Shown here: one piece after another, positions 27,624 through 63,622 of the stretch | Numbering within the stretch: position 1 is the stretch's first letter | How the letters are laid out: each line of letters begins with the position of its first letter | Source of the DNA: an uncultured Candidatus Saccharibacteria bacterium | GTDB taxonomy: Bacteria; Patescibacteriota; Doudnabacteria; UBA920 | Direction: 5' to 3' | NCBI GenBank assembly: GCA_964453405.1 | Contig: CAYVOF010000002.1 | Coordinates: 10,825 to 74,824, forward strand | Length of the DNA: 64,000 nt | The notes under the pieces: generated by a model | The model's input: the letters and a program-made list of their open reading frames with translations, nothing else | Told to the model about the DNA's origin: nothing | Database searches by the model: none | Program-made: the position numbers and the translations under genes

Positions 27624-27757
27624 GTTTTTGTTTCAAAAGTTGATAAAATTCTTATAAACATTATACCACAATTATAAAGGAAATAAAAAAAACAGGACTA
27701 AGATATACTTAGCCCCGTTGCGAAAAGAAACTCGCCAGGTTGATCCGTTAGGATCGG

Positions 27758-28561
27758 TTACTGTCGTTGATCGTTTCGAGTTCCAAGGTCTCTATCCCAA
27801 ACTGAGAGATTAATCTCTTGATGATAGTTTGTACGACCTTCTCCTACGGCTGGCAACTGCGTCTGTCCACCGTAATTACTACCTCTGACCGGCATCAGTA
27901 GAGCAACGACGTTATTATTGTTTCCGCCATTACCCAGTGGTTGGTAACCATTGCGGTTGCCGTAACCGAGGTTGTTCTGGTAAAAATCTCCTTCAAACCT
28001 TCGGTAGTCCCGACTCAGAATGTTGAGATTACGATGACCAATATATCCCCCAAGCCACAATAGAAACAAAGATGCGACAAGGAAAAATAAAAACGTGTAC
28101 ATCGGCCAGCCCGTTAAAAATTCAAGATTACCAAGCCTTCTTTTGACATCTGTGATATCAGCGGTGTGACCATTGATGATCTCGGCGTGTTGGGTAATTA
28201 ACTCACCCTGCGCATTCTGAGTATTTTCGATGGTAACGATCTTGCCATCCTGAATCCCATTGGCCAATCTCGCTTCCTTGTCGACACCATTCATATAGTA
28301 GCGTTTGTTAACCACTCGATTGACGACAACGTTACGTGACGAACCGCCGCGATTGTAAGAACCCTGCGGGATCGGTAGAACCGGAACTCGTCCTGCCGGA
28401 GCCGAAGCTGTTGGCGGCGGAGTTGCCGTGCTCGAAGCGTTGTTCGAAGTGTTAAACGGTTGAACGCGCTGCGGTCTCTGATCGAGTTGAGCGGAAGCCG
28501 ACATTGCGAAAGCGAAAAAAGAAAGAACGAAAATAGAAACAAGCGATGTTATTCTTTTCAT
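27758..28561 (-). CDS. Secreted or single-pass membrane protein (267 aa)
   Basis: N-terminal signal peptide, a Pro/Thr-rich linker, an internal TM (WPMYTFLFFLVASLFLLWLGG) and an Asn/Gly-rich C-terminus. Confidence 0.5.
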   Translation of the reverse strand: MKRITSLVSIFVLSFFAFAMSASAQLDQRPQRVQPFNTSNNASSTATPPPTASAPAGRVPVLPIPQGSYNRGGSSRNVVVNRVVNKRYYMNGVDKEARLANGIQDGKIVTIENTQNAQGELITQHAEIINGHTADITDVKRRLGNLEFLTGWPMYTFLFFLVASLFLLWLGGYIGHRNLNILSRDYRRFEGDFYQNNLGYGNRNGYQPLGNGGNNNNVVALLMPVRGSNYGGQTQLPAVGEGRTNYHQEINLSVWDRDLGTRNDQRQ

Positions 28562-28829
28562 AGTATTTTATATGGCCCTCCTTAGGCCTTGTGAAAACAA
28601 ATTTAGGTCTTGCGGACCGTTTTTTACAACGGTCACACGTGTGCATGACCTGTAGAAAACCACATTTTTATAGTATTTATGGACTTCTAGAGGAAATTCA
28701 CAATATTCAGTTTGACCCTGTAGTATACACTATTTTTTGCTTTTTGTCAATACCTATGACAAAACCAATAAAAAAAGAGTAAAAATGAAGAATTTCTTCA
28801 CCTTTACTCTTAAAATCAATACACAATTG

Positions 28830-29279
28830 TTAAATTACTAATTTAGCCTCAGAAACGGTGGAACCTTTGGCTTTCTGTGCCTCCCAGTAGTCAATAGTAG
28901 CCTCATCATAGGCTTGTTCAAGCCATGGAGCCACAACCCAGCCTACTAGAGCTAAAGCTTGAATTAAACCTGTCCACTGCTCTAAACCAAATGGAAAGCC
29001 GAATTTACCAACAAGACAAAGCATGTTGACTATAGTTAAAATGATACCTGTCATCATCAGTGTCAACCAAAGATACCGTGTCCATTTAATAAATTCTGCC
29101 AGAGTCGGATATTTGTATGCCAACATAACCGAAATAGCCGATCCAACTGTGAGAGTGAGCAACATAAAATTCATTGGCTTTGATGTAGGCATTCGCACCA
29201 CATACATCAACCCAACAACCATCAACGCCGATACAATAAAAAACAAAATTGTATTTTCAGTATTTGTTCTTCTGTTCAT
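28830..29279 (-). CDS. Small polytopic membrane protein (about 4 TM)
   Basis: SD (AGGAGG) 6 nt upstream of the ATG; the track start is a TTG 3 nt earlier. Confidence 0.5.
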   Translation of the reverse strand: MNRRTNTENTILFFIVSALMVVGLMYVVRMPTSKPMNFMLLTLTVGSAISVMLAYKYPTLAEFIKWTRYLWLTLMMTGIILTIVNMLCLVGKFGFPFGLEQWTGLIQALALVGWVVAPWLEQAYDEATIDYWEAQKAKGSTVSEAKLVI

Positions 29280-29376
29280 CAATTTCCTCCTAAATTATTT
29301 GAACCTAAAAAAATTTCAATTAAACGTTAAAAACTTCTTGGAAAAGAATATCACAGAAAACTGGTTTTGGCAAGAC

Positions 29377-31935
29377 CTAAACTGTCTTCTCTACTGCGCC
29401 TGGTCCAGCAGCCATCATATCAGCAACTTGGCTAGCTTCTAGGATTTCTGACTCAACTTCACTGCGTGGACGGCCAAATTTTAACCGCGACAGTTGACGA
29501 ATAGCCTCGGCAGTTTTCTTTTGCTCTTCATTAGCTTTTGGTAGCGGATAAGTTGCCATATTAAACGGTTTACTAGCCGTTCCCTTAATCATCAATTTTA
29601 CAAACGCGTTAAAGCGATCAACGTTTAATAAATCGAACTCGTTAAATGTTGGGGCAAATTCTTTAGCCATAACTTCACTGTCTTCTACACCGATACGGAA
29701 CGTGACCATACTACCAGCATTTCCAAACACCGCATCGCGAAGATCGTTACTTGCCGCACCTTGTGCACCCGCAGCTTGACCAAGCTGCGCCAAGAACTGG
29801 TGACCAATAATTAAGTTTAATCGATACTTACGGGCTTCACTTAAAATAGATGAGAAAGCATCAGTAATAAAGTTCTGGAACTCATCTACATATAGATAAA
29901 AATCTTGACGTTGATCTTCGGGAATATCAGCGCGCGACAACGCTGCCATCTGAATCTTACTAACCAAAATCAAACCAATCAGTTTGGCGTTCATTTCCCC
30001 TACTTTTCCTTTGGCCAAGTTCACTAAGAGGATTTTTTTATTATCCATGATGTCTCTAAAATTGAAGGCGCTCTTTGGCTGACCAACAATATTACGCATC
30101 ATGGAGTTTTCTACGAAGCGACCAACTTTGGAAACCAAATAACCCAACATTTCGGACTTATGAAAGTCGCTAGTTTTAGCCATTTCTTTTTCCCAAAAAG
30201 CACGAACCACTGGATCATTTAATTTAGAAACTTTGTACTTTTGGAATTCGGTGTCAGTAAAAATGCGCGGTACCTCGACAATTGTGCCTGGGTTTTGTTC
30301 ATCCGCCATCAACGTAAGCATGGCGTTGCGCATATTATGTTCGAACATTGGTCCAAGCATGGCAGGGTCGGTAACCAATTTATAAAAGATCGAGATCATT
30401 TCTTGTACAGCAAAATCTTTTTGACCTTCACTAGTCACTTCGAGCATGTTCAAACCCATTGGCCGGTCTGTATCGAATGGATCAAACAAAATTACATCTT
30501 CGGCACGCTCTTTTGGAATATGAGGTAAAACGTCTTCAATAAAATCACCGTGTGGGTCAATAATACAAATTCCGTCACCATTCTTAATATCCTGCACAGA
30601 CATGTACTTCATGATTTCGGTTTTACCCACACCAGTACGCCCTAGAATATACATATGACGACGACGATCATCGCGCGACATATGAATCTTAGTTTCTTGG
30701 CCACGATAAATATTACGACCTAATAAGATTCCTTCTTCTGGCAAATTAATTGGAGGTGGAGCTTTTTTAGATAGCAACCATTTGATGTTTGGTGTTTCTA
30801 AAAATGGTGTTGGGAGATGCCAAATGCTAGTTAATTCTTCGGTGTTTAAAATGGCTTTACGGCCATAACGACGATAGATGCGAAAAATATAATCTTTAAT
30901 AATACGTTTTTTGGCACGGCGCTTTACGCGAAAACCATTAAACGGCGCCATGTTGTACTGCAAAAATGAAGCTACTAAGTTATGCATATTAACTTTGGCT
31001 TCTCCAGGAGTTGGAGACGCAGTAATTAACCGAATGTTAGTAAAAAATCCTGGACGACTGGCTTTTTCTTCAAAGCGCTTTACCATTTCTTGCTGCATTG
31101 GGGTTAAGTTAATCGCCGAATATCGTCCCGATAAATCAGTGCGTTGCTGCATTTGATCTTTACTTAACTCACCACTTCCTAATGCACTGGTTTTTGCAGT
31201 ACTGGCAACTTCACGCGCAAAACGACCAAACGCACTCTTGGCAACAATGTTTGGATTTTTCCCTTGCTGAATTTCCAACGCCATATGACGTGGTCGGTGC
31301 TGCCAATGCTCGCCTGCGGGATATAAAATCATTTGAATCACGGCGCCGTCTTCATCGCCAAGTTTTGACATTGCATTAGTAAGGGAGTTAAGTGGATCAG
31401 TTTCCATGCTCTTATAAGTTCGGAAAGGATACATATAAGGTTTCGTAAGACGAAGCTCAGTTGCCTCAATCTGACCTTTGGCCGGAAAAGGATTATAGCC
31501 TTTAATCTCTTCGATAAAGGCATGAGGATACTGCGCCTGAACCTGCTTTTCAATTAACTCTTGTAGCTTGCGCGGGCAATTAATATAAAACGAAATCTTT
31601 TTATCAATACAGGCAATTTCGAAACTAATATATTCTTTAGGTTGAAAAAACCAGTTGTCATGACTTATACCCGAGAGCGTAGTAAATAACTGTTCCGCAA
31701 TACCAATTAGTAGTTTTTTCTCTTCATCTCGTTGATACTTTTCTTTATCTTCGCTATTATCTTTTGGCATTTGAATTTCTAAGAACACCCAATCTTTAGT
31801 GCGCGGCAAAATTACGCGGCCATAATACCAATGCCGGTGCAAATAATAAACCAGGAAAACCAAAAACACTATTACTAAAATTCCTAGCAATAGTGATGCA
31901 ATAATAATTGTATTAAGTTCTAATCCGAACGGCAT
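29377..31935 (-). CDS. Membrane-anchored FtsK/HerA-superfamily ATPase of type IV secretion type (VirB4/VirD4/TraD-like) with an atypical ~400-aa N-terminal domain
   Basis: N-terminal TM; Walker A GRTGVGKT (aa 432-439) followed by IIDPHGD; Walker B LYVDEFQNF (aa 680-688); 852 aa. Confidence 0.6.
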   Translation of the reverse strand: MPFGLELNTIIIASLLLGILVIVFLVFLVYYLHRHWYYGRVILPRTKDWVFLEIQMPKDNSEDKEKYQRDEEKKLLIGIAEQLFTTLSGISHDNWFFQPKEYISFEIACIDKKISFYINCPRKLQELIEKQVQAQYPHAFIEEIKGYNPFPAKGQIEATELRLTKPYMYPFRTYKSMETDPLNSLTNAMSKLGDEDGAVIQMILYPAGEHWQHRPRHMALEIQQGKNPNIVAKSAFGRFAREVASTAKTSALGSGELSKDQMQQRTDLSGRYSAINLTPMQQEMVKRFEEKASRPGFFTNIRLITASPTPGEAKVNMHNLVASFLQYNMAPFNGFRVKRRAKKRIIKDYIFRIYRRYGRKAILNTEELTSIWHLPTPFLETPNIKWLLSKKAPPPINLPEEGILLGRNIYRGQETKIHMSRDDRRRHMYILGRTGVGKTEIMKYMSVQDIKNGDGICIIDPHGDFIEDVLPHIPKERAEDVILFDPFDTDRPMGLNMLEVTSEGQKDFAVQEMISIFYKLVTDPAMLGPMFEHNMRNAMLTLMADEQNPGTIVEVPRIFTDTEFQKYKVSKLNDPVVRAFWEKEMAKTSDFHKSEMLGYLVSKVGRFVENSMMRNIVGQPKSAFNFRDIMDNKKILLVNLAKGKVGEMNAKLIGLILVSKIQMAALSRADIPEDQRQDFYLYVDEFQNFITDAFSSILSEARKYRLNLIIGHQFLAQLGQAAGAQGAASNDLRDAVFGNAGSMVTFRIGVEDSEVMAKEFAPTFNEFDLLNVDRFNAFVKLMIKGTASKPFNMATYPLPKANEEQKKTAEAIRQLSRLKFGRPRSEVESEILEASQVADMMAAGPGAVEKTV

Positions 31936-31979
31936 TTATTTTTTATTTTGGTTTCTACTTAACGAACTATTTATAATGG

Positions 31980-32333
31980 TTAATTTTGCAGATCGCCCAT
32001 TATTTTATTTACTAATTCCCTAGCCGAGCTACTATCATCAGTTTTAATATCATTTTCATCGTAGAGCTCCGTTTTAATATCTTCCACACGTTTTTCACCC
32101 GAAGCTATCGCTTCTATAATAGGAGGTTCTAAAGCTGATTCTATAGATAATTTAGAAGCATCCACTTGAGCAGGCGCCTCGGACTGCTCTATAGGGACTT
32201 CTTGTTCAACTGACTTAACTTGAGCTGGAATAGTTTCGGAAATTGAAGACTCAGCAACTTCTTGCATGCCAAGATTTTCTGTTGCTTTTTCCGGTTCAAA
32301 ACCTTCTGGAGTTTTTCGTATTGGGTCTGCCAT
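31980..32333 (-). CDS. Small acidic low-complexity protein (117 aa)
   Basis: ORF preceded by a TGGTATAAT -10 element ending 9 nt before the ATG, so likely a leaderless mRNA. Confidence 0.4.
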   Translation of the reverse strand: MADPIRKTPEGFEPEKATENLGMQEVAESSISETIPAQVKSVEQEVPIEQSEAPAQVDASKLSIESALEPPIIEAIASGEKRVEDIKTELYDENDIKTDDSSSARELVNKIMGDLQN

Positions 32334-32375
32334 AATGTATAAATTATACCATAAAACGACTTAAAAATACAAATA

Positions 32376-32410
32376 AAAAAGCGCTATTTTTTAATACAAT
32401 AGCGCTTTAA
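32376..32410 (-). terminator. Rho-independent terminator downstream of the SDR gene
   Basis: Hairpin aaagcgctatt ... aatagcgcttt followed by a T-run on the minus strand. Confidence 0.65.
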
Positions 32411-32417
32411 AACTGTT

Positions 32418-33128
32418 CTAAAACTGATAATCTCTTGGGATAGACATTTCTTTAAAATATTCCGTTTGACTAACCACAGAGTCTACAATAACCCGAGCAA
32501 CCTTAGATGGATCTAAAAACCCATCAAAATTATCTTGCGGATTATTATCCCAAAATGGAGTTTGCATACCACCTGGCATAAATAAGCTGACTTTGATGTT
32601 GGATTTAAGTCGTTCGGATTCTAAGCCTAAACTCCGAGTGAACCCAACCTGAGCATGCTTAGTTGCAACATAAATCGCCTCATCGTCTCTGGCTTTCATT
32701 CCTGAAGAAGATGAAATCACAACAAACTGACAATCTCTATTAGACTTGAGCATCTCTCTCCAAACTGCATGAGCAATCAAAACAGAGTTACGAAAATTTA
32801 TATCCACCAAATGACGAATGGAAAAAAAATCTTGATCTGCAAAATCTCCCTTTAATAATGAGCCGGCAACCCAAAAAAATCTATCGATTGTCGGTATTGT
32901 TGGAAATTCCAGAATATTCTGACCCAAACGATCACAAATAACATGGATAGAGTGATCATTGCTTAGATCGCACGGTAAAAGCAATTTATCGTCATTAAAA
33001 AATTCAGTCTTGATTGAACTACCTCCTACTACAATATAATCACCGTTAGCTTGGCATTGGTTAACAATACTTGCCCCGAGACCCTTAGTCCCACCCAAAA
33101 CAAACGAAACCAGTCTATTATTCTTCAT
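32418..33128 (-). CDS. Short-chain dehydrogenase/reductase (SDR) family oxidoreductase
   Basis: GGTKGLG Rossmann motif and YVATK (YxxxK) catalytic motif. Confidence 0.7.
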   Translation of the reverse strand: MKNNRLVSFVLGGTKGLGASIVNQCQANGDYIVVGGSSIKTEFFNDDKLLLPCDLSNDHSIHVICDRLGQNILEFPTIPTIDRFFWVAGSLLKGDFADQDFFSIRHLVDINFRNSVLIAHAVWREMLKSNRDCQFVVISSSSGMKARDDEAIYVATKHAQVGFTRSLGLESERLKSNIKVSLFMPGGMQTPFWDNNPQDNFDGFLDPSKVARVIVDSVVSQTEYFKEMSIPRDYQF

Positions 33129-42082: not shown

Positions 42083-42502
42083 TTAACTTGGTTCTACAAT
42101 ATCAATTTTCTTGCTTTCAGGTGTTAATGTGATCATTGCCTTTTTAAAACCGCTGCGCATTCCTTTGCTGCGACCAAACTGACGGCTTTTTCCACGAACT
42201 TGAATCATATTGATGTTAGCGATCTTTACACCATACATTTTTTCTACTGCTTGCTTAACTTCAATCTTGTTGAGTTTGCCATGAATAGTAAAAATGTATT
42301 GGTTAAAGCGACCTACGAATCCAGCTTTTTCGGAAACACGAGGAACAATTAAACCCTTGCTACCAAGACCACTATGAACAACATCCACCATTGCTTTTGG
42401 GGTTTGGTCATCCGAAGTCGCAGTTGGTGCAGCAGCTTTGTCAGCTACAGGAGCATCAACTACAGTTTCGCCAGTATTCTCTTTTTTAGAAAAAATTGCC
42501 AT
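42083..42502 (-). CDS. rplW: 50S ribosomal protein L23 with N-terminal extension
   Basis: L23 core (YQYIFTIHGKLNKIEVKQAVEKMYGVKI) in a 139-aa protein. Confidence 0.85.
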   Translation of the reverse strand: MAIFSKKENTGETVVDAPVADKAAAPTATSDDQTPKAMVDVVHSGLGSKGLIVPRVSEKAGFVGRFNQYIFTIHGKLNKIEVKQAVEKMYGVKIANINMIQVRGKSRQFGRSKGMRSGFKKAMITLTPESKKIDIVEPS

Positions 42503-42528: not shown

Positions 42529-43287
42529 TTATTCTTGATCTTCTTTTTTAGTTGCAGGTTTAGCTTCTGCCTTAGCTGGAGCTTTTTCTGCCTTTGCTTC
42601 TACTTCTTTCTTTGCAGATGGCTTAGCCTTTGCTACTTTTGCAGTTTCTTTTAAGTAAGTCTTTTCGATTACTTGTAAGCTATCTTTAGTTACCAACATT
42701 GCGTCAGCCTTTAATATATCGGTGATGTTCAAGCTTGTTGCAAATGCAGTGTTAATTTCTTGTAAGTTGCGAGAAGCGCGAATTAAGTTGTCATCTTTTT
42801 TAGGAAGAACCATCATTTGCTTGTTACCCAAAGTTGGTAATTTAGCATGAAAGGCCTGCATAACTTTGATGAATTCTTTTGTCTTAGGAGCTTGTAGATT
42901 GATTCCATCAATAATGATGAATTTTCCGTCGCGAGCTTTGTCAGACAAAGACATGAATAATGCTTTAGTCTTAGCTTTCTTGTTGATCTTTACACTCCAG
43001 TTACGATCAGAAGTTGGACCAAAGGTGACTCCACCGTGGCGCCAGATAGGGCTACGAGTAGAACCAACGCGAGCGCGTCCAGTTCCCTTTTGCTTCCAAG
43101 GCTTTTTACCGCCACCACTAACTTCGCCGCGAGTTTTGGTGTTAGCCAAACCCTTACGAGCATTGTTAGCTTGCGCACGGACGCTTTCGGCCATTAGATG
43201 CAAAGATGGCTTAACGTCAAAGATTTGATCGCTAACTTCCATTTCGCCAACGGCTTCGGCATTTTGATTGTAAACTTGAATTTTCAT
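42529..43287 (-). CDS. rplD: 50S ribosomal protein L4 with Lys/Ala-rich C-terminal extension
   Basis: L4 core plus a roughly 50-aa KA-rich tail. Confidence 0.85.
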   Translation of the reverse strand: MKIQVYNQNAEAVGEMEVSDQIFDVKPSLHLMAESVRAQANNARKGLANTKTRGEVSGGGKKPWKQKGTGRARVGSTRSPIWRHGGVTFGPTSDRNWSVKINKKAKTKALFMSLSDKARDGKFIIIDGINLQAPKTKEFIKVMQAFHAKLPTLGNKQMMVLPKKDDNLIRASRNLQEINTAFATSLNITDILKADAMLVTKDSLQVIEKTYLKETAKVAKAKPSAKKEVEAKAEKAPAKAEAKPATKKEDQE

Positions 43288-44246: not shown

Positions 44247-44570
44247 TTAACTCATTTTAATCTCTACGTCTACTCCAGCTGGTAAAGCGAGGTTAGTAAG
44301 AGAATCGATGGTTTTTGGGGTCGGATCGAGAATGTCGATCATGCGCTTATGAGTGCGCATTTCAAACTGTTCTCGGCTATCTTTATGTACAAAAGTCGAA
44401 CGAAGCACTGTGTACTTTCGCTTTGCGGTCGGCAAAGGCACTGGTCCAGAAACACTGGCTCCAGTTCTCTTGGCGGTATCAACGATTTGCTTAGCACTCT
44501 GATCGATTAACTTATGATCATATGCGCGAATCTTGATGCGAATTTTTGGCTTGTGTTCGGCCTTTTCCAT
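44247..44570 (-). CDS. rpsJ: 30S ribosomal protein S10
   Basis: [17 protein letters not shown] motif. The track start at 44585 is a TTG; the ATG start MEKAEH is at 44570. Confidence 0.9.
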
Positions 44571-44674
44571 AAAATAGATTGACAATATGCTGTTTTTGGC
44601 TTATTTATAAAAGATTTTAGCCACTATTCAGCAATTAAAAGCACTAGCTTTATTGCTAGTAGAACTTAATCAAA

Positions 44675-44704
44675 ATTTTATCCCATATTTAGCAGAGTGT
44701 CAAG
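44675..44704 (-). promoter_or_regulatory. Putative promoter (TTGACA-18-TAAAAT) with a ~100-nt leader for the S10 operon
   Basis: Hexamers read on the minus strand; a long leader is expected for an S10 operon under autoregulation. Confidence 0.4.
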
Positions 44705-44739
44705 TTTTTATTGGGGAAAATATGAGATATTGATGGATA

Positions 44740-44768
44740 TTGACAAAATCTTAGATTTATGGTAAAAT
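44740..44768 (+). promoter_or_regulatory. Sigma70-type promoter TTGACA-17-TAAAAT (with TGG extension) for the methyltransferase gene
   Basis: Consensus hexamers 35 nt upstream of the ATG at 44803; SD GGAGG. Confidence 0.5.
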
Positions 44769-44802
44769 AAGTTGGTTTTTATGTCTAAGTTATGGAGGAA
44801 TT

Positions 44803-45666
44803 ATGAAACCAACTATTTACCAGGTAGGCGCTCCAACCAGTGAAGTTAGGCGTCTTGAGAATTTGGAGTGGCCAAATGAAGTTAGCAAAAGTATCCTCGA
44901 AGCACTTCATGCTGGAATCCCAATCACTTCCCTACTCGATGCAGGAGCCGGCCCAGGAACACAAATGGCGGAACTGTGTTATAAACTCGATATTGAGTAC
45001 AGAGCATTTGACAATGGCAAAATGTCGACCCCAGTCGGCGACGTTTATATGGCTGACATTCTTAAAAGGAATCTGTGGGATAAAGGCCTTCTAGGCTCTT
45101 CGGTTGTTGCCGACGTATTGACCGTTGGACTAGACTCATTTGGTGACCGTAATTACGATCTGCGCGATAACAGTCTTCCTGATATTGTCCACATGCGGTT
45201 CGTACTTATGCACTTGCCAGCTTGTGAATGGGCTATGGCAATTATGAATATGCTCATGCTAGCACAGAAACGATTAATTTTGATGGAATACGATTGGCGA
45301 ACTGTTAAAAGTTCATCGCACCCCACATTAATCGAAGAAAGTGTAAAAACTTTTGAACGATTTGCCAAGTTGGTAAATCTCAACCTCTACGCCGGCCGGA
45401 ATCTAACAAACGAGGCAAATGGATTTGGTTACCCTGTAACTGAATGCGTATATTCCAGAGCTGAAGGTCATTATGCGCAAGAGCTGGCCTCTAAACTCCC
45501 GACAGGAATCGAGACGGCGAGGAAAATTGGCGAGATCGATCTGGCAAATGAGCTGCAAAATATAATGGATACTATCCTAGGATATGGAAATGGGTTAACA
45601 CTCGTTCCAGCAGAAATTCACGCCGTTGTGATCGATACATCAAAGGAACGCATTCGACGCGTTTAA
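44803..45666 (+). CDS. Class I SAM-dependent methyltransferase
   Basis: Motif I LDAGAGPGTQ. GC content is somewhat higher than in neighbouring genes. Confidence 0.65.
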   Translation: MKPTIYQVGAPTSEVRRLENLEWPNEVSKSILEALHAGIPITSLLDAGAGPGTQMAELCYKLDIEYRAFDNGKMSTPVGDVYMADILKRNLWDKGLLGSSVVADVLTVGLDSFGDRNYDLRDNSLPDIVHMRFVLMHLPACEWAMAIMNMLMLAQKRLILMEYDWRTVKSSSHPTLIEESVKTFERFAKLVNLNLYAGRNLTNEANGFGYPVTECVYSRAEGHYAQELASKLPTGIETARKIGEIDLANELQNIMDTILGYGNGLTLVPAEIHAVVIDTSKERIRRV

Positions 45667-45686
45667 ATTATGGTGAATATTCACCA

Positions 45687-45717
45687 CTCCGGAACTAAAC
45701 GTTCCGGAGTTTTTTAT
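45687..45717 (+). terminator. Rho-independent terminator
   Basis: ctccggaac taaac gttccggag followed by T6. It is preceded by a perfect 14-bp palindrome GGTGAATATTCACC at 45672-45685. Confidence 0.7.
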
Positions 45718-45721
45718 TTTC

Positions 45722-45750
45722 CAAAAAAAAGAAGCAATTACTTGCTTCTT
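45722..45750 (-). terminator. Rho-independent terminator for the minus-strand 156-aa gene
   Basis: gaagcaa ttac ttgcttc followed by a T-run on the minus strand. Confidence 0.6.
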
Positions 45751-45755
45751 AGATG

Positions 45756-46226
45756 CTAGCTATGATTAACCATAGCTTTTAGAACTTCGACTGAATTAAC
45801 TTGTGTAGGAATAGCAATCTCTACACGCTTATCACTATCTCCCCCACCATCCAAAACTGGATCAATCGGTGGTTCACTTATAACTAAACAATACTGCAAG
45901 TCGTGTGGATTTCCATTAATCTCTTCAGCATCGAGATGAATTTCAAAGCCCAGCGCCTCTTCTAAAGATTCAAGATATGTTTGCAAGACTTTAAAATCTG
46001 CTGCGGATAACTTTTCTAAAATAATTTCCAGATTGCGATTAGTGATGGTTATGCGGTCAACACCAAAACGAAACAATCGTAGCAAATTATTATCGGACAG
46101 TTCTTCTAGCTGTTGTAATATTTGAATGACGATTAACGTAATCGGAATGGAGCTACGTAGCATCCGCTGTATTGTATCGACACTCTTCCACTGAACTCTT
46201 CTCATATAATGTTCAATTTCCTCCAT
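45756..46226 (-). CDS. Hypothetical protein (156 aa)
   Basis: ORF bounded by terminators; no recognisable motif. Confidence 0.45.
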   Translation of the reverse strand: MEEIEHYMRRVQWKSVDTIQRMLRSSIPITLIVIQILQQLEELSDNNLLRLFRFGVDRITITNRNLEIILEKLSAADFKVLQTYLESLEEALGFEIHLDAEEINGNPHDLQYCLVISEPPIDPVLDGGGDSDKRVEIAIPTQVNSVEVLKAMVNHS

Positions 46227-46312
46227 TTTAAACTTAGACCCATTTTATCTAATCAAGTATTCTTCGTCAAAGAAAAAAGCGCTACCTCGATAGCACTTTT
46301 TTTAAAATAATT

Positions 46313-46672
46313 TTATAAACTACACTCTTGGTATAAAGTTCGAGTGTCCGGATTCGTCATAGTTTGACCTGTGACCTTTGCGTTATAAACGGAACATGTA
46401 TCTGTTGCAGGGATCCAGAACGTAGTTACTATGACATCTGAAGACACTGCTGATGCAGAACCAGAAGTAGTTGGCTTAATTGACCAGCTTCCACCAGTTT
46501 GAGATTTAATTGCCCAACTCCTACCAATATTAAAGTTTGCTGATGAAGGTGTGCCTTGAATATCTGCAAACGGACCGACATGGTAATAACGTGATGTCCA
46601 AAAAAAACCGACCAATGCACCAATGACTAGCATCAGTACTATTAGCATCATATTTTGTTGATTTTTTATCAT
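46313..46672 (-). CDS. Small signal-anchored, Cys-containing protein, paralog 2 (119 aa)
   Basis: Shares N-terminal TM plus the R.Y..GP.A..QGTPSSAN module with the adjacent gene; its own terminator lies downstream. Confidence 0.55.
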   Translation of the reverse strand: MIKNQQNMMLIVLMLVIGALVGFFWTSRYYHVGPFADIQGTPSSANFNIGRSWAIKSQTGGSWSIKPTTSGSASAVSSDVIVTTFWIPATDTCSVYNAKVTGQTMTNPDTRTLYQECSL

Positions 46673-46744
46673 TATAATTTAACAGTTAATTAATACCTTA
46701 AGTATGAGGCTTTTAAAAAAATCTGCCAAACGAGTTATCCCCAA

Positions 46745-46790
46745 ACAAAAAACTCCCCCCATATAAGAAGGGAGTTTTTTTATATTTTTA
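46745..46790 (-). terminator. Rho-independent terminator after paralog 1
   Basis: aaactccc ... gggagttttttt hairpin with T-runs on both strands. Confidence 0.6.
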
Positions 46791-47087
46791 ATTACCAGTT
46801 CCACCTGGGGTACTTGACCAATTCTCAGTCCAGTAATCACGACCATTGACCCGGCGGTGACATCTCATGTCTTCGCCCAGAGTCCCTGCGGCGCCACTAC
46901 TATCAAAATAACATAGATCTCCTGGTCGATGACCAGCCGACCCTTGTAAATTAGCAGAAGACGGTGTCCCCTGCAAACCAGCTAATGGTCCTGCTCCATA
47001 ATTACGAGCAGTAAAAGCCCAACCAATGAAGATGCCGATTGCGATCATTCCAACACCAATCAGGAGATCTTTTTGTTTCTTTTCCAT
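46788..47087 (-). CDS. Small signal-anchored, Cys-containing protein, paralog 1 (99 aa)
   Basis: N-terminal 47 aa paralogous to the 46313-46672 gene; two cysteines in a divergent C-terminal part. Confidence 0.55.
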   Translation of the reverse strand: MEKKQKDLLIGVGMIAIGIFIGWAFTARNYGAGPLAGLQGTPSSANLQGSAGHRPGDLCYFDSSGAAGTLGEDMRCHRRVNGRDYWTENWSSTPGGTGN

Positions 47088-47159
47088 TTTATTTTAAACA
47101 ATTAATTATTACTTTAAGTATGAGTTTATTTATAAAATAGTGCAAACAAGTTATCCACA

Positions 47160-47196
47160 AACAAAAACTCCCCCACCTCGGAGGAGTTTTTAAATT
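47160..47196 (-). terminator. Rho-independent terminator downstream of tuf
   Basis: aaaaactcctccgaggtgggggagttttt hairpin followed by a T-run on the minus strand. Confidence 0.6.
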
Positions 47197-48384
47197 TTAC
47201 TTAGTAATCTTTACAACAACACCAGCACCAACGGTTCGGCCACCTTCACGGATCGCGAACTTACCTTTTTCTTCCAAAGCAATTGGAGTAATAAGCTTAA
47301 TGTTGATGTTTACAGTATCACCAGGCATAACCATTTCTTGGCCTTCTGGCAAGATAACTTCACCGGTTACGTCAGTTGTACGTACGTAGAACTGTGGCTT
47401 ATAACCCTTGAAGAAAGGAGTGTGGCGTCCGCCTTCTTCTTTGTTCAAGATATAAACTTCAGCTTCGAACTCAGTGTGAGGAGTAATAGAACCAGTCTTA
47501 GCCAAAACTTGGCCGCGTTCTACTTCTTCCTTCTTAACACCGCGAAGTAATAGACCAGCGTTGTCACCAGCCATACCCTTGTCCAACTGCTTGTTGAACA
47601 TTTCGATACCAGTTACAACAGTCTTAGAAGTTGGTTTGATACCAACGATTTCGACTTCTTCGTTGATGTTGATCATACCGCGTTCGATACGACCAGTAAC
47701 TACAGTACCACGACCTTCGATTGTGAAGATGTCTTCGATAGGCATCAAGAAAGGTTGGTCAGTAGCACGAGATGGATCAGGGATGAAAGTATCCAAAGCT
47801 TCTACAAGCTTTAAGATAGATGGTTCACCCATATCAGATGTGTCGCCTTCCAAAGCTTTTAATGCACTACCACGGATGATAGGTGTGTCTTTGCCTGGGA
47901 ATTCGTACTTGTTAAGCAAGTCGCGGATTTCTTCTTCTACTAAATCCAAAAGTTCTGGATCAGAAACCATGTCGCACTTGTTCATGTAAACTACGATGTG
48001 AGGTACACCTACCTGACGAGCGAGCAAGATGTGTTCGCGAGTCTGAGGCATAGGACCATCAGTAGCAGATACTACAAGAATAGCACCGTCCATTTGAGCA
48101 GCACCGGTAATCATGTTCTTGATGTAGTCGGCGTGACCAGGACAGTCTACGTGAGCGTAGTGACGAGTTGCAGATTCATATTCTGCGTGAGAGGTATTAA
48201 TTGTAATACCACGAGCTTTTTCTTCTGGAGCGTTGTCGATGCTAGCGTAATCGCGAGCTTTAGCGCCACCAGTTTTAGCTAACACAGTTGTGATAGCTGC
48301 AGTCAAAGTGGTCTTACCATGGTCTACGTGACCGATAGTACCAACGTTGACGTGAGTCTTAGAACGATCAAATTGCTCTGCCAT
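47197..48384 (-). CDS. tuf: Elongation factor Tu
   Basis: [14 protein letters not shown] and NKCD G-motifs; 395 aa. Confidence 0.97.
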
Positions 48385-48647
48385 TTGATACCTTTCTGTT
48401 CTATAAATTCGGTTCTAGCCCCGAGATACCCTCTCTACTTCCCCTTATCATCCTGATCGGGACTGGCTAGCTAAAGCGGGCTAAAGCTGGCGATTCGGGA
48501 AAGAAGGGAGGGTTTCTCTTTTTTTCGCAAGGAATCCAGGTGACGAGAAAAGAGATTTATAGTTTTTTAATGATTTTAAAATTGGCGACGGAGACGCGCG
48601 CCAATCACAATGTATTGTAAGTGGTTTTGGGTGAGTTTGTCAAGGGT

Positions 48648-48676
48648 TTGACAGCAATAGAAAAGTTGCTTACAAT
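48648..48676 (+). promoter_or_regulatory. Sigma70-type promoter TTGACA-17-TACAAT for the lipoprotein gene
   Basis: Consensus hexamers; an adjacent TTGTCA ... TTGACA inverted repeat overlaps the -35. Confidence 0.5.
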
Positions 48677-48699
48677 ATTGAGTCAATACAGGAGGACAT

Positions 48700-49149
48700 A
48701 TGAATATAACATTTAGACCAGTTTACAAAATTATTGTGCTGATGATCTTGATGCTTTTTGTCGGTTCGGCCACTGGTTGCAAATCGGATGCCAAAATTGC
48801 TGAAGCTAAGGTGGAAAAGGAAATAGAAAGGGAACAAAAGTTAACCCAGCTTAAAACGTACTCAGACGAAACTTGGACAGTAAAGCAAATTAATTTGCAA
48901 AACGATTCTTCTATAACAAATGATAATACATACGCTGTGATTATCGAAAACCCGAAGGGCGAGCGTAGGTATCTCAAGGCTGTAGAATCAAACCGTAGAG
49001 ACTATGGCAAATTACAAAGTTGGATGCTGGCCCACGATGACCAATTAAAATTTGCCATTAATGAATCAGTTTCTGTATTTAATTCTGAAGGTGACTTGCC
49101 CTATCTAATACTCGTGGAGAGAAATGGTAAAGTTATGACTCCTCATTAA
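48700..49149 (+). CDS. Putative lipoprotein (149 aa)
   Basis: Signal peptide with lipobox ATGC; SD AGGAGG. Confidence 0.55.
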   Translation: MNITFRPVYKIIVLMILMLFVGSATGCKSDAKIAEAKVEKEIEREQKLTQLKTYSDETWTVKQINLQNDSSITNDNTYAVIIENPKGERRYLKAVESNRRDYGKLQSWMLAHDDQLKFAINESVSVFNSEGDLPYLILVERNGKVMTPH

Positions 49150-49166
49150 CGAGGAGTTTTTTATTG
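49137..49166 (+). terminator. Rho-independent terminator
   Basis: actcctc attaac gaggagt followed by T6. Confidence 0.6.
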
Positions 49167-49239
49167 ACTAACTTCTTTAAAATCTATACAATTCAAAACC
49201 TAAGATAAACTCTTAGATAAAAATATAAGGAGGTGTAAT

Positions 49240-49479
49240 ATGAATTACCCAATATTCAAACAGCGATGGGTTAAAACCTTGCCTGATGGCAAAGTTGCAG
49301 AAGTGTACTCTATACACCTCACCCCAGAATCAGCAATTGAATTTATCGAACAGCAAAGACTCCAGCCAACATACCCAGAATATATAGCTACTGGTCATCC
49401 CGTGCCAGATATGGTCAACGAAGAAATTTTTAATTACTTAACTACGGCCAAAAATTGGTGGACAGAAGAAGAACATTAA
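49240..49479 (+). CDS. Hypothetical small protein (79 aa)
   Basis: SD AAGGAGG 7 nt upstream; bidirectional terminator hairpin at 49496-49525. Confidence 0.5.
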   Translation: MNYPIFKQRWVKTLPDGKVAEVYSIHLTPESAIEFIEQQRLQPTYPEYIATGHPVPDMVNEEIFNYLTTAKNWWTEEEH

Positions 49480-49525
49480 GTAAATCAGAATTAACAAAAC
49501 GCACCCGTTTGGATGCGTTTTTATT

Positions 49526-50010
49526 TTATATGTCGTCAAAGTTGGGTTTGATTTCTTCGTCCGCTTCTGTTTCGACTAAAGGTTGAGCTAATGGCATACC
49601 AAAACTTGGATCCATTACTTCTTCTCGCAAGTCATATTGAGGTGGCTCTTGTCGGCCGTAGGGTTGGTTGATAAACAAATCTTTGGCGCGTTTAGAAAGA
49701 ATATTTTTTATCGGCGTCGGCATGATTACCGAATGAGGTGCTGTGTTAGGTACATCATCTGCAATAGTTTCTAGATTAATGTTTGTAGTGTCCACGATAT
49801 CGGTGAGCTGGGCTTCTAATATTTCACGGTTAATTTTTTCTGGGTCTGGACCAGTAGGAGTTGAACTTGCTACGCCAGTCAAAACCGTACCACCAGCCAT
49901 GCGCTGATATTCAGCAAAGGACAAAAATACACCCTTCACTTTCCCATCTTCGCCAACAATCATTACTTTTCCATCTTGCCCTGCAAATTGTATTAAATCT
50001 TTAAGGTTCA
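49526..50010 (-). CDS. Hypothetical protein with a Phd/YefM-antitoxin-like N-terminal ~50 aa and an acidic Pro-rich tail
   Basis: An N-terminal pattern (KVMIVGEDGKVKGVFLSFAEYQRM) resembles Phd/YefM. The ATG at 50010 lies 7 nt after a TTGCCA-17-TATAGT promoter, so the mRNA is likely leaderless; the track TTG start is at 50047. Confidence 0.4.
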
Positions 50011-50137
50011 TATTTAATACTATAGTCGGCTCAGTCAATATTGGCAAATAAATATGGGTTAAGCTTGGGATACTTACAAATCGCTTTACAAATCCAAATA
50101 GATTATCTACAAAGTAAAGTCTAAATAAGGAGGAAAA

Positions 50138-50347
50138 ATGGCAAAATATTTTGTTAGTGGTTTAATCACAACTGTTCGTTCTCAAGTTGGTGATGACAAT
50201 AAAAAACATTTTGATCGATTTATAGATTACCCGCTTATCGTTTCGGAAGCTGATTATGCTGACTTTAGAAACGAGCTTGCGGAAAAACTAAACGCACACC
50301 CAACAGATCTTGAAGTCACTAATCTGAATGTTCTTTTCAAAACCTGA
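50138..50347 (+). CDS. Hypothetical small protein (69 aa)
   Basis: SD AAGGAGG; followed by a bidirectional terminator at 50357-50392 shared with fusA. Confidence 0.5.
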   Translation: MAKYFVSGLITTVRSQVGDDNKKHFDRFIDYPLIVSEADYADFRNELAEKLNAHPTDLEVTNLNVLFKT

Positions 50348-50399
50348 CATTACAAAAACCGTCCCCATGTTAGAGACGGTTTTTTTATTTCTATTAAAT

Positions 50400-52529
50400 T
50401 TACTGCATACCCTTACGAACGTTCATGCCCGCACGGGATTCAATAATATTTGCGGCAACATTCTTTGGAACTTCTTCATAGTGATCAAATTCCATGATGC
50501 TGGATGCCTGACCTTGAGTCATAGAACGCAACTGTGTTGCATAACCAAACATTTCGGCTAGCGGTACAAATGCAGTTACAACCTTGCGACCAGTAATATC
50601 TTCCATATCCTGAATCTTAGCGCGCTTAGAGTTTAAGTCACCGATTACATCACCCATGTTAAGTTCTGGCGTAGTAACAACAACTTTCATGACTGGTTCT
50701 AAGATAATAGGATCACCTTTCTTAACAGCTTCTTGTAAACATTTTGAAGCAGCAATTTTGAAGGCCATTTCGGAAGAGTCAACTTCGTGATAGCTACCGT
50801 CGTAAACAGCAGCACTAAAGTCTACTAATGGATAACCGGCAATAACACCGTTTGCGGCAGATTCCTGAATACCTTTATCAATTGGCTTGATGTATTCTTT
50901 TGGAATTACACCACCAACAATTTCGTCTTTAAATTCATAACCCTTACCTGCTTCGAGCGGTTCGACACGCAAGTAAACGTGACCATATTGACCGCGTCCA
51001 CCAGACTGACGAATATACTTAACTTCGGCAGTAGCCATTTTCTTAAAGCTTTCTTTGTAAGCAACTTCTGGTTTACCGACGTTAGCCTCGACTTTGAATT
51101 CGCGCTTCATACGGTCTACCAAAATTTCTAAGTGCAATTCACCCATACCAGCAATAATTGTTTGCTGAGTTTCGTCGTTAGTAGAAACTTTAAAGGTTGG
51201 ATCTTCTTCTGCAAGTTTTTGCATCGCAATACCCATTTTTTCTTGATCAGCTTTGGTCTTAGGTTCGATCGCCATGCTGATAACTGGTTCTGCGAATTTA
51301 ATCTTTTCTAATTCGATTGGAGAAGATTCAGCACAAAGAGTATCAGCAGTGATAGTGTCTTTTGGACCTACCAACGCGCAGATGTCTCCAGCAAATACTT
51401 CTTTAACTTCGTCACGTTGATCAGCGCGCATACGTACGATACGACCAACGCGTTCTTTGTTACCGCTACGAGCGTTAAGTACGTAAGAACCGGCTTCCAA
51501 TTTACCAGAGTAAACCCGGAAGAAAGCTAAACGTCCAACGAAAGGATCAGTTGCAATTTTAAATGCCAAAGCAGTAAATGGTTCGTCATCAGTTGGATGA
51601 CGAAGTAGTTCTTCACCAGTTTTTGGGTTATGACCTTTAACTGGTTCTTTGTCGGTTGGAGATGGCAAGAAGTTAGCAACACCGTCTAATAATGTACGCA
51701 CAATGATCCCGCGACCGTCACCACCGAATACTGGGAAGAATTCACCAGAGCGAGTAGCTTTGCGAATCGCTAGCAATAATTCTTCTTCGGTAAGTTCTTT
51801 ACCTTCTAAATATTTTTCCATTAACTGATCGTCGAATTCAACAACTTTTTCAATCAATTCGTGGCGGTACTTTTCACACTTTTCTTTTAAGTCCGCTGGT
51901 ACTTCACCGATGGTAAATTCTTTGTCAGTAAAATCTTTGTAGGTATAGGACTTCATTTGAACAAGGTCAACAACACCAACAATGTCTTTTTCAAATCCAA
52001 TTGGAATTTGAACAGGAAAAGCATTCTTAGTTAAACGGTTGTGAATTGATTCAAGCGATTTAAAGAAGTCACCACCGGTTTGGTTGATTTTGTTAATGAA
52101 GCACATGCGTGGTACGCCGTACTTGTCGGCTTGGCGCCACACAGTTTCGGACTGAGGTTCTACACCCATTTTTCCGTCGAACACGGTAACTGCGCCGTCG
52201 AGTACGCGCAAAGAGCGCTCTACTTCTACGGTAAAGTCTACGTGACCTGGAGTGTCGATAATGTTAATTTTGTATTCTGGAAGTTCGTCCGCTAACTTAA
52301 CGTACTGAGGCTTCCAATAACAAGTTACAGCCGCGGATGTAATTGTAATACCGCGTTCGCGTTCTTGTTCCATCCAGTCGGTCACAGTTTCACCTTCGTG
52401 AACCGCACCGATCTTGTGGATCATACCGGTGTTGTACAAGATACCTTCGGTAGTTGTAGTTTTACCAGCGTCGATGTGAGCGATAATCCCGATATTACGG
52501 GTCGCTTCTATTTGATAATCTCTGGGCAT
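50400..52529 (-). CDS. fusA: Elongation factor G
   Basis: AHIDAGKTT and DTPGHVDF G-motifs; 709 aa. Confidence 0.97.
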
Positions 52530-62455: not shown

Positions 62456-63472
62456 TTAAACCACAAAATAATTGTCTTCTACGGGCTTACCATCGGCATC
62501 TTCCACGCGGCGCATAATGTCTTCGAGGTCTTCGTCGGAGAAAAATTCGATGGTGATTTTTCCACCCCGACCTTGGCGCGAAACTTTAACCTGAGTACCA
62601 AACTTGCCCCGCAGTTTTGTTTCGATCGCCATAAGTTTTGGGTCTGGTACAGCAGAATCCACCACTTTGCGCTTGGCAAACTCACGTACCCGAGCCTCTA
62701 CTTGGCGCACGCTCATGCCTTGGTCTAAAATTTGTTTATACATCAACAACTGTTTTTCGATATCAGGAAGAGTAAGAATGGCGCGACCATGACCTTCAAA
62801 AATTTTACCTTCAATAATACCACGCTGAATCTCAGCAGGTAGTTGCAGCAAGCGCATGGTATTGGCAACACCCGAACGCGACTTACCCACCTTAACAGCA
62901 ACTTCAGCTTGGTTAAGCCCGAACTTTTGCATTAAGCGTTGGTAGGCCTGTGCTTCTTCGATTGAGTTTAACTCTTGGCGCTGAATGTTTTCGATCAAAG
63001 CAACTTCGAGCTTGGTTTGATCTTGCAAAGTTTTTTTAACAATTGCTGGAACTCTAGTTAAGCCAGCCAACTGCGACGCTCGAAAACGGCGCTCTCCTAC
63101 TACTAATTCATAACCGGCTTCTGTCTCGGTAACTACCACAGGCTGAATCACGCCATGCTCTTTAATCGAATCCGCTAATTCTTGCAAAGCTTCTGGTTTA
63201 AAAACTTTGCGAGGCTGATACGGATTAGCAACAATTTTGGAAACTTCAATTTCTTGAATAGTACTATCGGTATACGAAACTTTTTCGGAAGGTTCTAAAT
63301 TTATAGTTTCGTTACTTGCTTCGTCAAGATTAATTACATCTGGTGCCAGTGGTTCAGCAATGCTAGGAGTGGGATTATCAGAAACAAAATTATCGCTTGG
63401 AGCTATTGCGCTACCGAGCGATTCATCTTGATTTAAATTATTTGTAATGTTAGTTGGATAGATTGAATCCAT
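62456..63472 (-). CDS. parB: Chromosome partitioning protein ParB/Spo0J
   Basis: ParB box VVGERRFRA and HTH. The start was trimmed to MDSIYP at 63472 because the longer track ORF overlaps the tRNA. Confidence 0.85.
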   Translation of the reverse strand: MDSIYPTNITNNLNQDESLGSAIAPSDNFVSDNPTPSIAEPLAPDVINLDEASNETINLEPSEKVSYTDSTIQEIEVSKIVANPYQPRKVFKPEALQELADSIKEHGVIQPVVVTETEAGYELVVGERRFRASQLAGLTRVPAIVKKTLQDQTKLEVALIENIQRQELNSIEEAQAYQRLMQKFGLNQAEVAVKVGKSRSGVANTMRLLQLPAEIQRGIIEGKIFEGHGRAILTLPDIEKQLLMYKQILDQGMSVRQVEARVREFAKRKVVDSAVPDPKLMAIETKLRGKFGTQVKVSRQGRGGKITIEFFSDEDLEDIMRRVEDADGKPVEDNYFVV

Positions 63473-63480
63473 AAGTTCTG

Positions 63481-63566
63481 TGGTGCCGGTGGTGGGAGTC
63501 GAACCCACACGCCCTTGCGGACAGTGGATTTTGAGTCCACCGCGTATGCCATTCCGCCACACCGGC
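63481..63566 (-). tRNA. tRNA-Leu (anticodon CAA), type II with long variable arm, CCA encoded
   Basis: Manual cloverleaf: acceptor GCCGGTG/CACCGGC, 3-bp D-stem, anticodon loop CTCAAAA, variable arm of 15 nt, T-loop TTCGACT, and a CCA 3' end. Confidence 0.85.
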
Positions 63567-63622
63567 ATATAAATAATAACTTCCTAATTCTATCAAAAAC
63601 TCTCTGCTTCCGCAAAGAGTAT

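Follow-up and report, generated by a model that had tools for sequence, protein, structure and literature searches.

Small insertions separating the str operon from the S10 operon are a recurrent event in bacteria, with bfd-bfr in Enterobacterales and their relatives and ilv-leu in Sporolactobacillaceae as documented cases (PMC8046335). In these insertions, tuf and rpsJ are separated by a few genes that have no part in translation, while the order and orientation of the flanking operons are kept (PMC8046335; PMC6735719). A similar arrangement is found in a 64,000-nucleotide stretch of DNA, here called the window, from an uncultured Candidatus Saccharibacteria bacterium (contig CAYVOF010000002.1 of assembly GCA_964453405.1). 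Its minus strand reads rpsL-rpsG-fusA-...-tuf, then 2611 bp, then rpsJ-rplC-rplD-... through secY, with str and S10 collinear. The gap between rpsJ and tuf (44586-47196) contains four open reading frames (ORFs) in the ORF list. This spacer is probably a lineage-specific, mostly vertically inherited variable region at the str|S10 boundary in Patescibacteria (the candidate phyla radiation, CPR), and not a recent foreign island. Its genes and boundaries are:

44247-44585, minus strand: rpsJ, which encodes ribosomal protein S10 and opens the S10 operon; lower boundary of the spacer
44803-45666, plus strand: MT, 287 amino acids (aa), a predicted orphan class I methyltransferase dependent on S-adenosylmethionine (SAM), divergent and Methyltransf_23-like
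45756-46226, minus strand: h156, 156 aa, no transmembrane segment, acidic C-terminal part
46313-46672, minus strand: sp119, 119 aa, with a predicted transmembrane helix at the N-terminus, the GPFADIQGTPSSAN motif, a linker modelled as disordered, and a small beta domain that carries Cys93 and Cys117
46788-47087, minus strand: sp99, 99 aa, a paralogue of sp119 that shares its 46-residue N-domain but not its C-terminal part, which in sp99 is Gly-rich and carries Cys59 and Cys76
47197-48384, minus strand: tuf (EF-Tu), upper boundary of the spacer

An earlier note on this DNA had described a 2.6-kb spacer with a SAM methyltransferase, a hypothetical gene and two small cysteine-containing proteins. 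The ORF layout, the methyltransferase motif I and AlphaFold2 and Foldseek analyses bear this out, including the minus-strand 156-aa gene. Like the described insertions, the spacer is shorter than 10 kb and has been passed on within a clade, some of whose members have since altered or lost it. A neighbourhood shared across genomes is found for MT only, which adjoins rpsJ in five of five contexts; the other genes vary. Unlike the insertions of the published studies, this one lies in a CPR bacterium, outside the taxa covered there, and consists of orphan genes instead of recognisable metabolic genes such as bfd-bfr or ilv-leu. Its content also changes from genome to genome, and the same genome is interrupted inside the str operon as well, between fusA and tuf. 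As a few lineage-specific genes at the str|S10 boundary, the spacer is a further example of a known event, and nothing here overturns current understanding. What appears to be new, modestly, is an orphan MT family fixed beside rpsJ and a family of putatively exported small two-cysteine proteins with a recognisable promoter cassette.

Spacer lengths were compared across 58 loci in which rpsJ and the 3' end of tuf are both present, the window being left out. The tuf-rpsJ spacer has a median length of 90 bp and does not exceed 400 bp in 46 loci, in agreement with the earlier statement that the two genes are normally adjacent. Spacers longer than 1 kb occur in nine of the 58, and eight of these belong to the window's clade, counting both L002 and L003, although their MT protein is one and the same. 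The claim of accessory content at a highly conserved locus holds to the extent that the genes are non-housekeeping, vary among relatives, and fill more than 1 kb, which is unusual outside the clade. The exceptionality of the site was overstated, however, because str and S10 are separate operons with documented recurrent small insertions (PMC8046335). Ribosomal protein L3 of the window shares 76% and 72% identity with that of the closest metagenome-assembled genomes, labelled uncultured Candidatus Saccharibacteria, and 59-65% with that of a further group labelled Saccharibacteria or Doudnabacteria. L3 of classical Saccharibacteria and of unrelated phyla all lies at about 45-50% identity to the window protein. 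The window S10 is 92-96% identical to the S10 proteins of related loci, which match Pfam Ribosomal_S10, and the window's tuf product is 85-94% identical to those of clade loci.

Five genomic contexts of MT were recovered: the window, L002/L003, L004, L085-L088 and L089. The gene is divergent from rpsJ in L002/L003, L004 and L085-L088; in L089, the order is tuf>MT>95-aa ORF>rpsJ in a single orientation, with MT inverted relative to the other contexts. Identity to the window protein (58, 51, 50 and 33%, the last in L089) declines with L3 identity (87, 83, 80 and 67%). A 220-bp region between rpsJ and MT is kept across the window, L002, L004 and L085. It contains the back-to-back promoters of both genes and the rpsJ leader hairpin; the TTGACA and TAnAAT hexamers of the MT promoter are conserved in all four aligned genomes, as are the hexamers of the rpsJ promoter. 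In a neighbour-joining tree of L3 and S10, the MT-less L005 and L006 fall among MT-bearing genomes, and neither has a detectable MT remnant even at E = 5. The gene is also absent from L007-L011.

Because MT stands beside rpsJ in every one of the five contexts and its identity declines as that of L3 does, it is probably ancestral to this small clade and was probably lost twice afterwards. One ancestral acquisition followed by two losses is the most parsimonious reading. MT would have stood next to rpsJ in the clade ancestor. Its putative promoter is conserved and lies back to back with that of the S10 operon. The gene is dispensable, as its absence from L005 and L006, nested in the clade, and from L007-L011 indicates. 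The earlier note had named an ancestral arrangement common to relatives as evidence against its reading. For MT this is in part what the related genomes show, while the rest of the spacer does vary.

Apart from MT, each genome has its own selection of spacer genes. L002 carries MT, a TPR-like protein and a 285-aa protein; L004 carries MT, an h156 homologue and a TPR-like protein; and L085 carries MT, a TPR-like protein, an h156 homologue, a 131-aa protein and a DUF5648 protein. The TPR-like family (241-253 aa, about 41% mutual identity; L002 10961-11686, L004 11466-12206, L085 4501-5262) adjoins MT in all three loci, matches Pfam TPR_12 in L004, and is missing from the window. The h156 homologues of L004 and L085 share 29-32% identity with the window protein, and none is present in L002, so that h156 accompanies MT in three of five genomes. 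No Pfam, NCBIfam or significant PDB match was obtained for h156, and a word-indexed protein search returned only the window's own protein; the product is probably cytoplasmic, because it contains no hydrophobic segment. The spacers of L005, L006 and L007 contain unrelated genes, and those of L009 and L010 are empty, at about 370-380 bp. This pattern is consistent with a spacer that would turn over by gene gain and loss between fixed flanks.

The composition of the spacer resembles that of its surroundings. GC content, GC at third codon positions (GC3) and codon usage of the four genes lie mostly within about 2 standard deviations (sd) when set against 62 other window ORFs. The outermost values are the MT codon score (z = -2.0) and the sp99 GC content (z = 2.3), the sole spacer value above 2 sd; GC and GC3 of MT stay within 1.4 sd, so the compositional analysis suggested in the earlier note finds the gene native. 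Searches with Pfam, NCBIfam and PHROG found no integrase, recombinase or transposase among seven spacer proteins. The spacer contains no tRNA (the only one in the window is at 63481-63566), and no direct or inverted repeats bracket 44586-47196. PHROG and PADLOC gave no matches, nor did a tblastn search with MT of phage and plasmid collections; a defence island and a prophage were rejected on this basis. The spacer thus shows neither an integrase, nor flanking repeats or a tRNA site, nor a deviating composition, the marks of a genomic island. Taken as a recent or foreign acquisition, the "insertion" of the earlier note does not stand, given the native composition, the missing mobility signal and the position of MT beside rpsJ in five contexts.

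The MT family is small and divergent. Only six relatives (33-58% identity) were found among 5.8 billion proteins, giving a family of seven members. Six of the seven weakly match Pfam Methyltransf_23 (best E = 4e-6), no NCBIfam model matches the window protein, and a PDB profile search gave nothing significant (best E = 0.69). The profile search advised in the earlier note to find the substrate class gave a weak family hint for the window protein (18 bits against a cut-off of 27) and did not fix the class. Within the family alignment, SAM motif I (LLDAGAGPGT, residues 44-53) has D46, G48 and G50 invariant in all seven members (DAGxGPG), an acidic residue follows strand 2 (FDxG), and RFVxMH, EYDW and S-x-x-HP are family-specific invariant motifs.

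An AlphaFold2 model built on this alignment (pLDDT 83.4, pTM 0.83) matches 693 PDB chains at E <= 0.001 in Foldseek, and the top 50 listed are all methyltransferases with a probability of 1.0. The model thus establishes MT as a class I SAM-dependent methyltransferase by fold; SAM binding and methyl transfer are predicted from motif I and the modelled fold. The best neighbours are 3mgg, LahSb (6uak), TleD (5gm1), phosphoethanolamine N-methyltransferases (PMT; 4mwz), OxaG, TmtA (5egp) and HvrF (9e72). With class I methyltransferases that carry a helical cap (Methyltransf_23/25/11 type; compared with 3mgg, LahSb, TleD, 4mwz, TmtA and HvrF), MT shares a Rossmann-like core of seven strands, the GxGxG of motif I and the acidic residue after strand 2. 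It differs from them in its sequence, which falls below the Pfam gathering threshold, in its own invariant motifs, and in the rarity of its family. In the model, the fold is nearest to small-molecule, natural-product and peptide methyltransferases, and we infer a small metabolite or peptide as substrate, not rRNA or DNA.

The two small genes beside tuf belong to a separate family. Some known systems join a conserved export module to variable domains: in Sec-dependent class II bacteriocins, the N-terminal export region is conserved and the disulfide-bonded C-terminal part is hypervariable. BLASTP aligns sp119 and sp99 over residues 1-47 (47% identity, E = 9e-15), and an 81-nt repeat upstream of the two genes is 78% identical. 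A 23-nt upstream motif has two occurrences against 0.01 expected. Each protein has a basic N-terminal region, one hydrophobic segment at residues 8-26 (best 19-residue Kyte-Doolittle average 2.2-2.5) and exactly two cysteines. Their C-terminal halves are unrelated in every frame; a frameshift in sp99 masking an sp119-like C-terminus was considered and rejected, as tblastn recovers only residues 1-47 in any frame. In the sp119 model, residues 3-30 form a helix, residues 43-64 are a disordered linker, and residues 80-118 make up a small beta domain. Pfam, NCBIfam, word-indexed and fold searches linked the proteins to no known family, whether by sequence or by fold: the word-indexed search returned only the two window proteins, and the sp119 model found nothing in the PDB (best E = 2.7). 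No lipobox or type IV pilin motif is present in either protein, and neither ATG has an obvious Shine-Dalgarno sequence close by.

Among 1.84 billion representative proteins, an exhaustive profile search (E <= 0.001) gave 14 matches: the two window proteins, 11 others (93-281 aa) and a marginal one to the end of a 1351-aa protein. Family members measure 93-151 aa, with one of 281 aa, and nearly all align to the N-domain (residues 1-47) only. The consensus consists of a short basic N-terminus, one transmembrane helix, the motif S/T-R-x-Y-G-x-G-P-L-A-G-L-x-G-x-P-S-S-A-N/D and then a hypervariable region. Exactly two cysteines follow the N-domain in 11 of 12 aligned members, and the twelfth has six. 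The only conserved small-residue motif is S-S-A, about 20 residues past the helix. One member, P0011, is a full-length relative of sp119 (53% identity in the family alignment, E = 8e-28) that lies between nusG and rplK in another genome; P0013 follows an RNase H gene, and P0015 stands beside a thioredoxin-like gene. None of these three (loci L090, L093 and L095) has an MT homologue nearby. A search of metagenome contigs with a five-member family alignment gave 30 pattern matches, none confirmed, and a search of the literature for comparable secreted small proteins from Saccharibacteria found nothing relevant. P0014, P0015, P0016 and P0018 end in P-(L/M)-L-(E/D), and the 131-aa protein of L085 ends in NPTLN; such a conserved C-terminal ending may be a second signal.

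The C-domain types of sp119 and sp99 are old lineages and the pair is no recent duplication, because a full-length sp119 relative occurs at another locus in another genome. The proteins are best seen as old paralogues of a clade-restricted family, and "tandem family members" describes them more accurately than "tandem duplication". The earlier claim of tandemly duplicated small secreted Cys proteins survives in that they are paralogous, apparently anchored and have two cysteines each; recent duplication does not, as the C-terminal halves are unrelated. We infer that sp119 and sp99 are exported or surface-anchored with one disulfide, and the variability of the C-domain suggests an interaction with something outside the cell. 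The 46-residue N-domain, with its helix and the juxtamembrane G-P-L-A-G-L-x-G-x-P-S-S-A-N motif, would insert into or cross the membrane. It would either anchor the variable C-terminal domain, presumably disulfide-bonded through its two cysteines, on the cell surface or release it by cleavage near SSAN.

This organisation resembles that of Sec-dependent class II bacteriocins and of polymorphic families of surface proteins or effectors in joining a conserved N-module to unrelated C-domains, here with a fixed Cys pair, in small proteins (93-151 aa) encoded in tandem. In contrast to a standard Sec signal, lipobox, double-glycine leader or pilin signal, the module is 46 residues long and has a full transmembrane helix with the juxtamembrane motif about 20 residues beyond. 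Unlike bacteriocin systems, sp119 and sp99 have no immunity or transporter genes near them.

Each of the four spacer ORFs has a sigma-70-like site at its 5' side in a consensus scan and a hairpin with a T-run at its 3' side, so the spacer is read as four independent, lineage-specific transcription units. The earlier note had likewise given MT its own consensus promoter and terminator, and both are found. The elements are:

44703-44675, minus strand: rpsJ promoter-like site, TTGACA-17-TAAAAT, from the consensus scan
44661-44642, minus strand: rpsJ leader hairpin TACTAGCAATAAAGCTAGTG followed by a U-rich run, kept in the window, L002, L004 and L085
44740-44768, plus strand: MT promoter-like site, TTGACA-17-TAAAAT with an upstream TG, 11/12 matches, back to back with the rpsJ promoter
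45686-45710, plus strand: predicted MT intrinsic terminator, a 10-pair hairpin with a T-run, from the terminator scan
45729-45750, minus strand: h156 terminator-like hairpin, convergent with the MT terminator
46242-46270, minus strand: h156 promoter-like site, TTGACG-17-TAAAAT, from the consensus scan
46673-46746, minus strand: sp119 promoter cassette, with the TGGGGATAA box at 46743-46735 and TTGGCA-17-CATACT at 46729-46701
46755-46774, minus strand: sp99 terminator hairpin, abutting the sp119 cassette
47088-47162, minus strand: sp99 promoter cassette, with a perfect TGTGGATAA box at 47159-47151 (TTATCCACA on the plus strand), then TTTGCA-like and CATACT hexamers
47170-47186, minus strand: tuf terminator hairpin, abutting the sp99 cassette

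The rpsJ leader hairpin may be a clade-specific S10-operon leader or attenuator; neither the rpsJ leader nor the whole spacer matches an Rfam family.

The small genes share a distinctive upstream cassette. A GC hairpin with a T-run, the terminator of the preceding gene, is followed by GTTTG, TG(T/G)GGATAA, about 5 nt and TTG(C/G)nn; after about 17 nt come a -10-like (C/T)A(T/G)A(C/A)T, then TTAAG, then TAATTAA, which is an A/T-rich stretch, and the ATG. In 257 kb of clade DNA there are five copies of the cassette, all of them 5' of a gene for a small N-terminally anchored two-Cys protein: sp119, sp99, L085 (about 6334-6399, minus strand), P0011 in L090 (about 9905-10000) and P0015 in L095 (about 7925-8000). 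The L085 gene (5938-6333, in the tuf-rpsJ spacer) encodes the 131-aa protein, which is N-terminally anchored and has two cysteines but not the GPLAGL motif. The non-coding part of the supposed duplication is better conserved than the coding part because the cassette is presumably under selective constraint of its own. A scan of public metagenomes with a 21-base cassette motif gave only two chance matches, both on human-gut contigs inside a membrane-protein ORF that we take to be uppP.

The cassette contains the 9-mer TGTGGATAA, which is the DnaA-box consensus, TTATCCACA, in reverse complement. This 9-mer occurs ten times in the 257 kb, five in cassettes and five inside coding sequence. The match is perfect in four of the five cassettes (sp99, L085, L090 and L095), and sp119 has one mismatch. 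In E. coli and B. subtilis, DnaA also acts as a transcription factor at promoters, and the placement of a perfect 9-mer just upstream of the -35 in four of five cassettes is like that of DnaA-regulated promoters in these species. Unlike DnaA-box clusters, each cassette has a single box, and no dnaA gene or origin lies in the window. A replication origin or DnaA-box cluster was rejected as an explanation, since only four loose-consensus boxes, scattered, occur in the 64 kb. The box could be bound by DnaA or another regulator, or could be part of the promoter itself. The shared cassette would drive expression of the small genes, with the box about 5 nt upstream of the -35 as the presumed site of a common regulator.

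Several other explanations of the spacer deserve consideration. The reading implied by the earlier note, a recently acquired island or mobile cassette placed between tuf and rpsJ, draws on the orphan character and few relatives of the genes, on spacer content that differs among related genomes, and on MT, which is encoded on the opposite strand and scores lowest of the set in codon usage. We consider it quite improbable, and for MT largely refuted: besides the native composition and the absence of mobility, phage, plasmid and defence signals described above, MT is found at one and the same site in five genomes, its identity dropping along with that of L3, and its promoter region is kept across four. 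A reading more difficult to set aside for MT links it to translation, with EF-Tu, a ribosomal protein or rRNA as its substrate and co-regulation through the divergent promoters keeping it by rpsJ. Its position beside rpsJ in every context, even when inverted in L089 at 33% identity, its persistence while other spacer genes turn over, and the conserved back-to-back promoters all fit this idea. The nearest structures, however, are helical-cap methyltransferases of small molecules, natural products and peptides, and not the known ones of rRNA or ribosomal proteins, and the absences from L005-L011 show that the gene can be dispensed with. Gene order is generally conserved in the clade, so the adjacency may be inertia, and a link to translation is distinctly unlikely.

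The variable peptides raise the alternative of a small bacteriocin-like cluster of ribosomally synthesized and post-translationally modified peptides (RiPPs), with sp119 and sp99 as precursors (a leader and a Cys/Ser/Thr-rich core) that MT would tailor. A conserved leader, a hypervariable core with two cysteines and the third rank of LahSb, a RiPP C-terminal methyltransferase, among the structural neighbours (E = 4e-11) speak for such a cluster. Yet the LahSb match has a TM score of just 0.5 at 11% identity, like dozens of class I methyltransferases, and the "leader" holds a transmembrane helix; we know of no RiPP leader with a helix of this sort. MT and the small family genes are never together elsewhere: MT occurs without a family gene in L002 and L004, and P0011, P0013 and P0015 occur without MT. 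No cyclase, dehydratase, leader protease, ABC exporter or immunity gene is found among the spacer genes, each of which appears to be a separate transcription unit, with MT divergent. The RiPP explanation is very improbable, and it and the translation-linked one both carry low probability. A different view would deny that the small ORFs are genes and treat the repeat as a duplicated non-coding terminator-promoter element. It gains from upstream non-coding identity of about 78% in nucleotides against 47% in amino acids over 47 coding residues, and from the missing Shine-Dalgarno sequences. It hardly deserves credence, given about a dozen proteins with the same N-domain in other assemblies, a full-length relative of sp119, the two-Cys pattern in 11 of 12 aligned members, and the promoter-like site and terminator that bracket each ORF.

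Some points weigh against the preferred reading of a lineage-specific, mostly vertically inherited region and against the functions proposed within it. The sample comprises five MT contexts and four independent small-gene contexts. The tree of L3 and S10 is built on 343 columns and carries no support values, and "ancestral plus two losses" is an argument from parsimony. Promoter assignments are consensus matches, and the 18 promoter-like sites found are not significantly more than the 15.6 expected in shuffled sequence; the terminator scan is significant (11 against 4.8 expected). MT scores under the curated Pfam cut-off, its structural neighbours share TM scores of 0.45-0.65 but just 11-17% identity, and the proposed kind of substrate is suggested by them. 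For the small proteins, export, disulfide formation and cleavage are predicted from sequence, and the sp119 model has modest confidence (pLDDT 70, pTM 0.39).

The fusA-tuf gap (48385-50399, with fusA at 50400-52529 on the minus strand) is a second interruption, inside the str operon, that had been missed in the earlier note. It contains three ORFs:

48700-49149, plus strand: h149, with a lipoprotein-like N-terminus carrying ...SATGC
49240-49479, plus strand: h79, an ORF of the fusA-tuf gap
49526-50047, minus strand: h173, kept in the clade with 62% identity in L004 and 32-39% in L006, L009 and L010

Gaps of 0.5-7 kb between fusA and tuf are common in the CPR loci fetched; short gaps of 29-177 bp occur in five loci (L043, L048, L060, L061 and L080), not all of them non-CPR. 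The secE-nusG-rplK-rplA cluster is interrupted too in L090 (8981-13011), by a 34-aa ORF and the sp119 homologue P0011 between nusG and rplK and by 255-aa and 108-aa ORFs between rplK and rplA. Downstream of secY in the window, the region 23301-33128 holds other genes, among them a 267-aa ORF, in place of the usual spc/alpha continuation:

23301-27623: a 1440-aa protein with no Pfam match
29377-31935: an 852-aa VirD4/TrwB-like coupling ATPase
32418-33128: a short-chain dehydrogenase, beside a 117-aa ORF

Within the S10 operon, L23 (139 aa) has an N-terminal extension of about 40 residues and L4 (252 aa) a Lys/Ala/Glu-rich C-terminal tail of about 40 residues. Their genes are at 42083-42502 and 42529-43287, and the proteins of relatives are similar in length. 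A ParB gene (62456-63568) lies near the right end of the window, and the cumulative GC skew falls over the profiled 38-54 kb, which together suggest a replication origin beyond that end. The true ParB start is probably further downstream, because the listed ORF overlaps a tRNA-Leu(CAA) at 63481-63566.

At its widest, the evidence allows a joint reading that we offer tentatively and regard as rather unlikely. The small genes would form an undescribed CPR regulon of hypervariable single-disulfide exported peptides that act on host or competitor cells and are switched together through the DnaA-box-like site, while the linkage of MT to rpsJ may be translation-related. If this is true, the N-module (helix plus GPLAGLxGxPSSAN) would direct export and cleavage, and the peptides would serve as adhesins, effectors or bacteriocin-like toxins of an epibiont. 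The box could then tie expression of the family to replication or growth state.

More broadly, this CPR lineage repeatedly interrupts the most conserved operon cluster of bacteria, at fusA|tuf, at tuf|rpsJ, after secY and, in a relative, at nusG|rplK. The case extends a pattern of interruption documented so far mainly in Proteobacteria and Firmicutes. It also offers two leads in a group where most genes are uncharacterised: a seven-member orphan MT family and a family of small, putatively exported two-cysteine proteins. The promoter cassette provides a possible handle for finding proteins, secreted or at the cell surface, that are co-regulated in these probably host-dependent bacteria.

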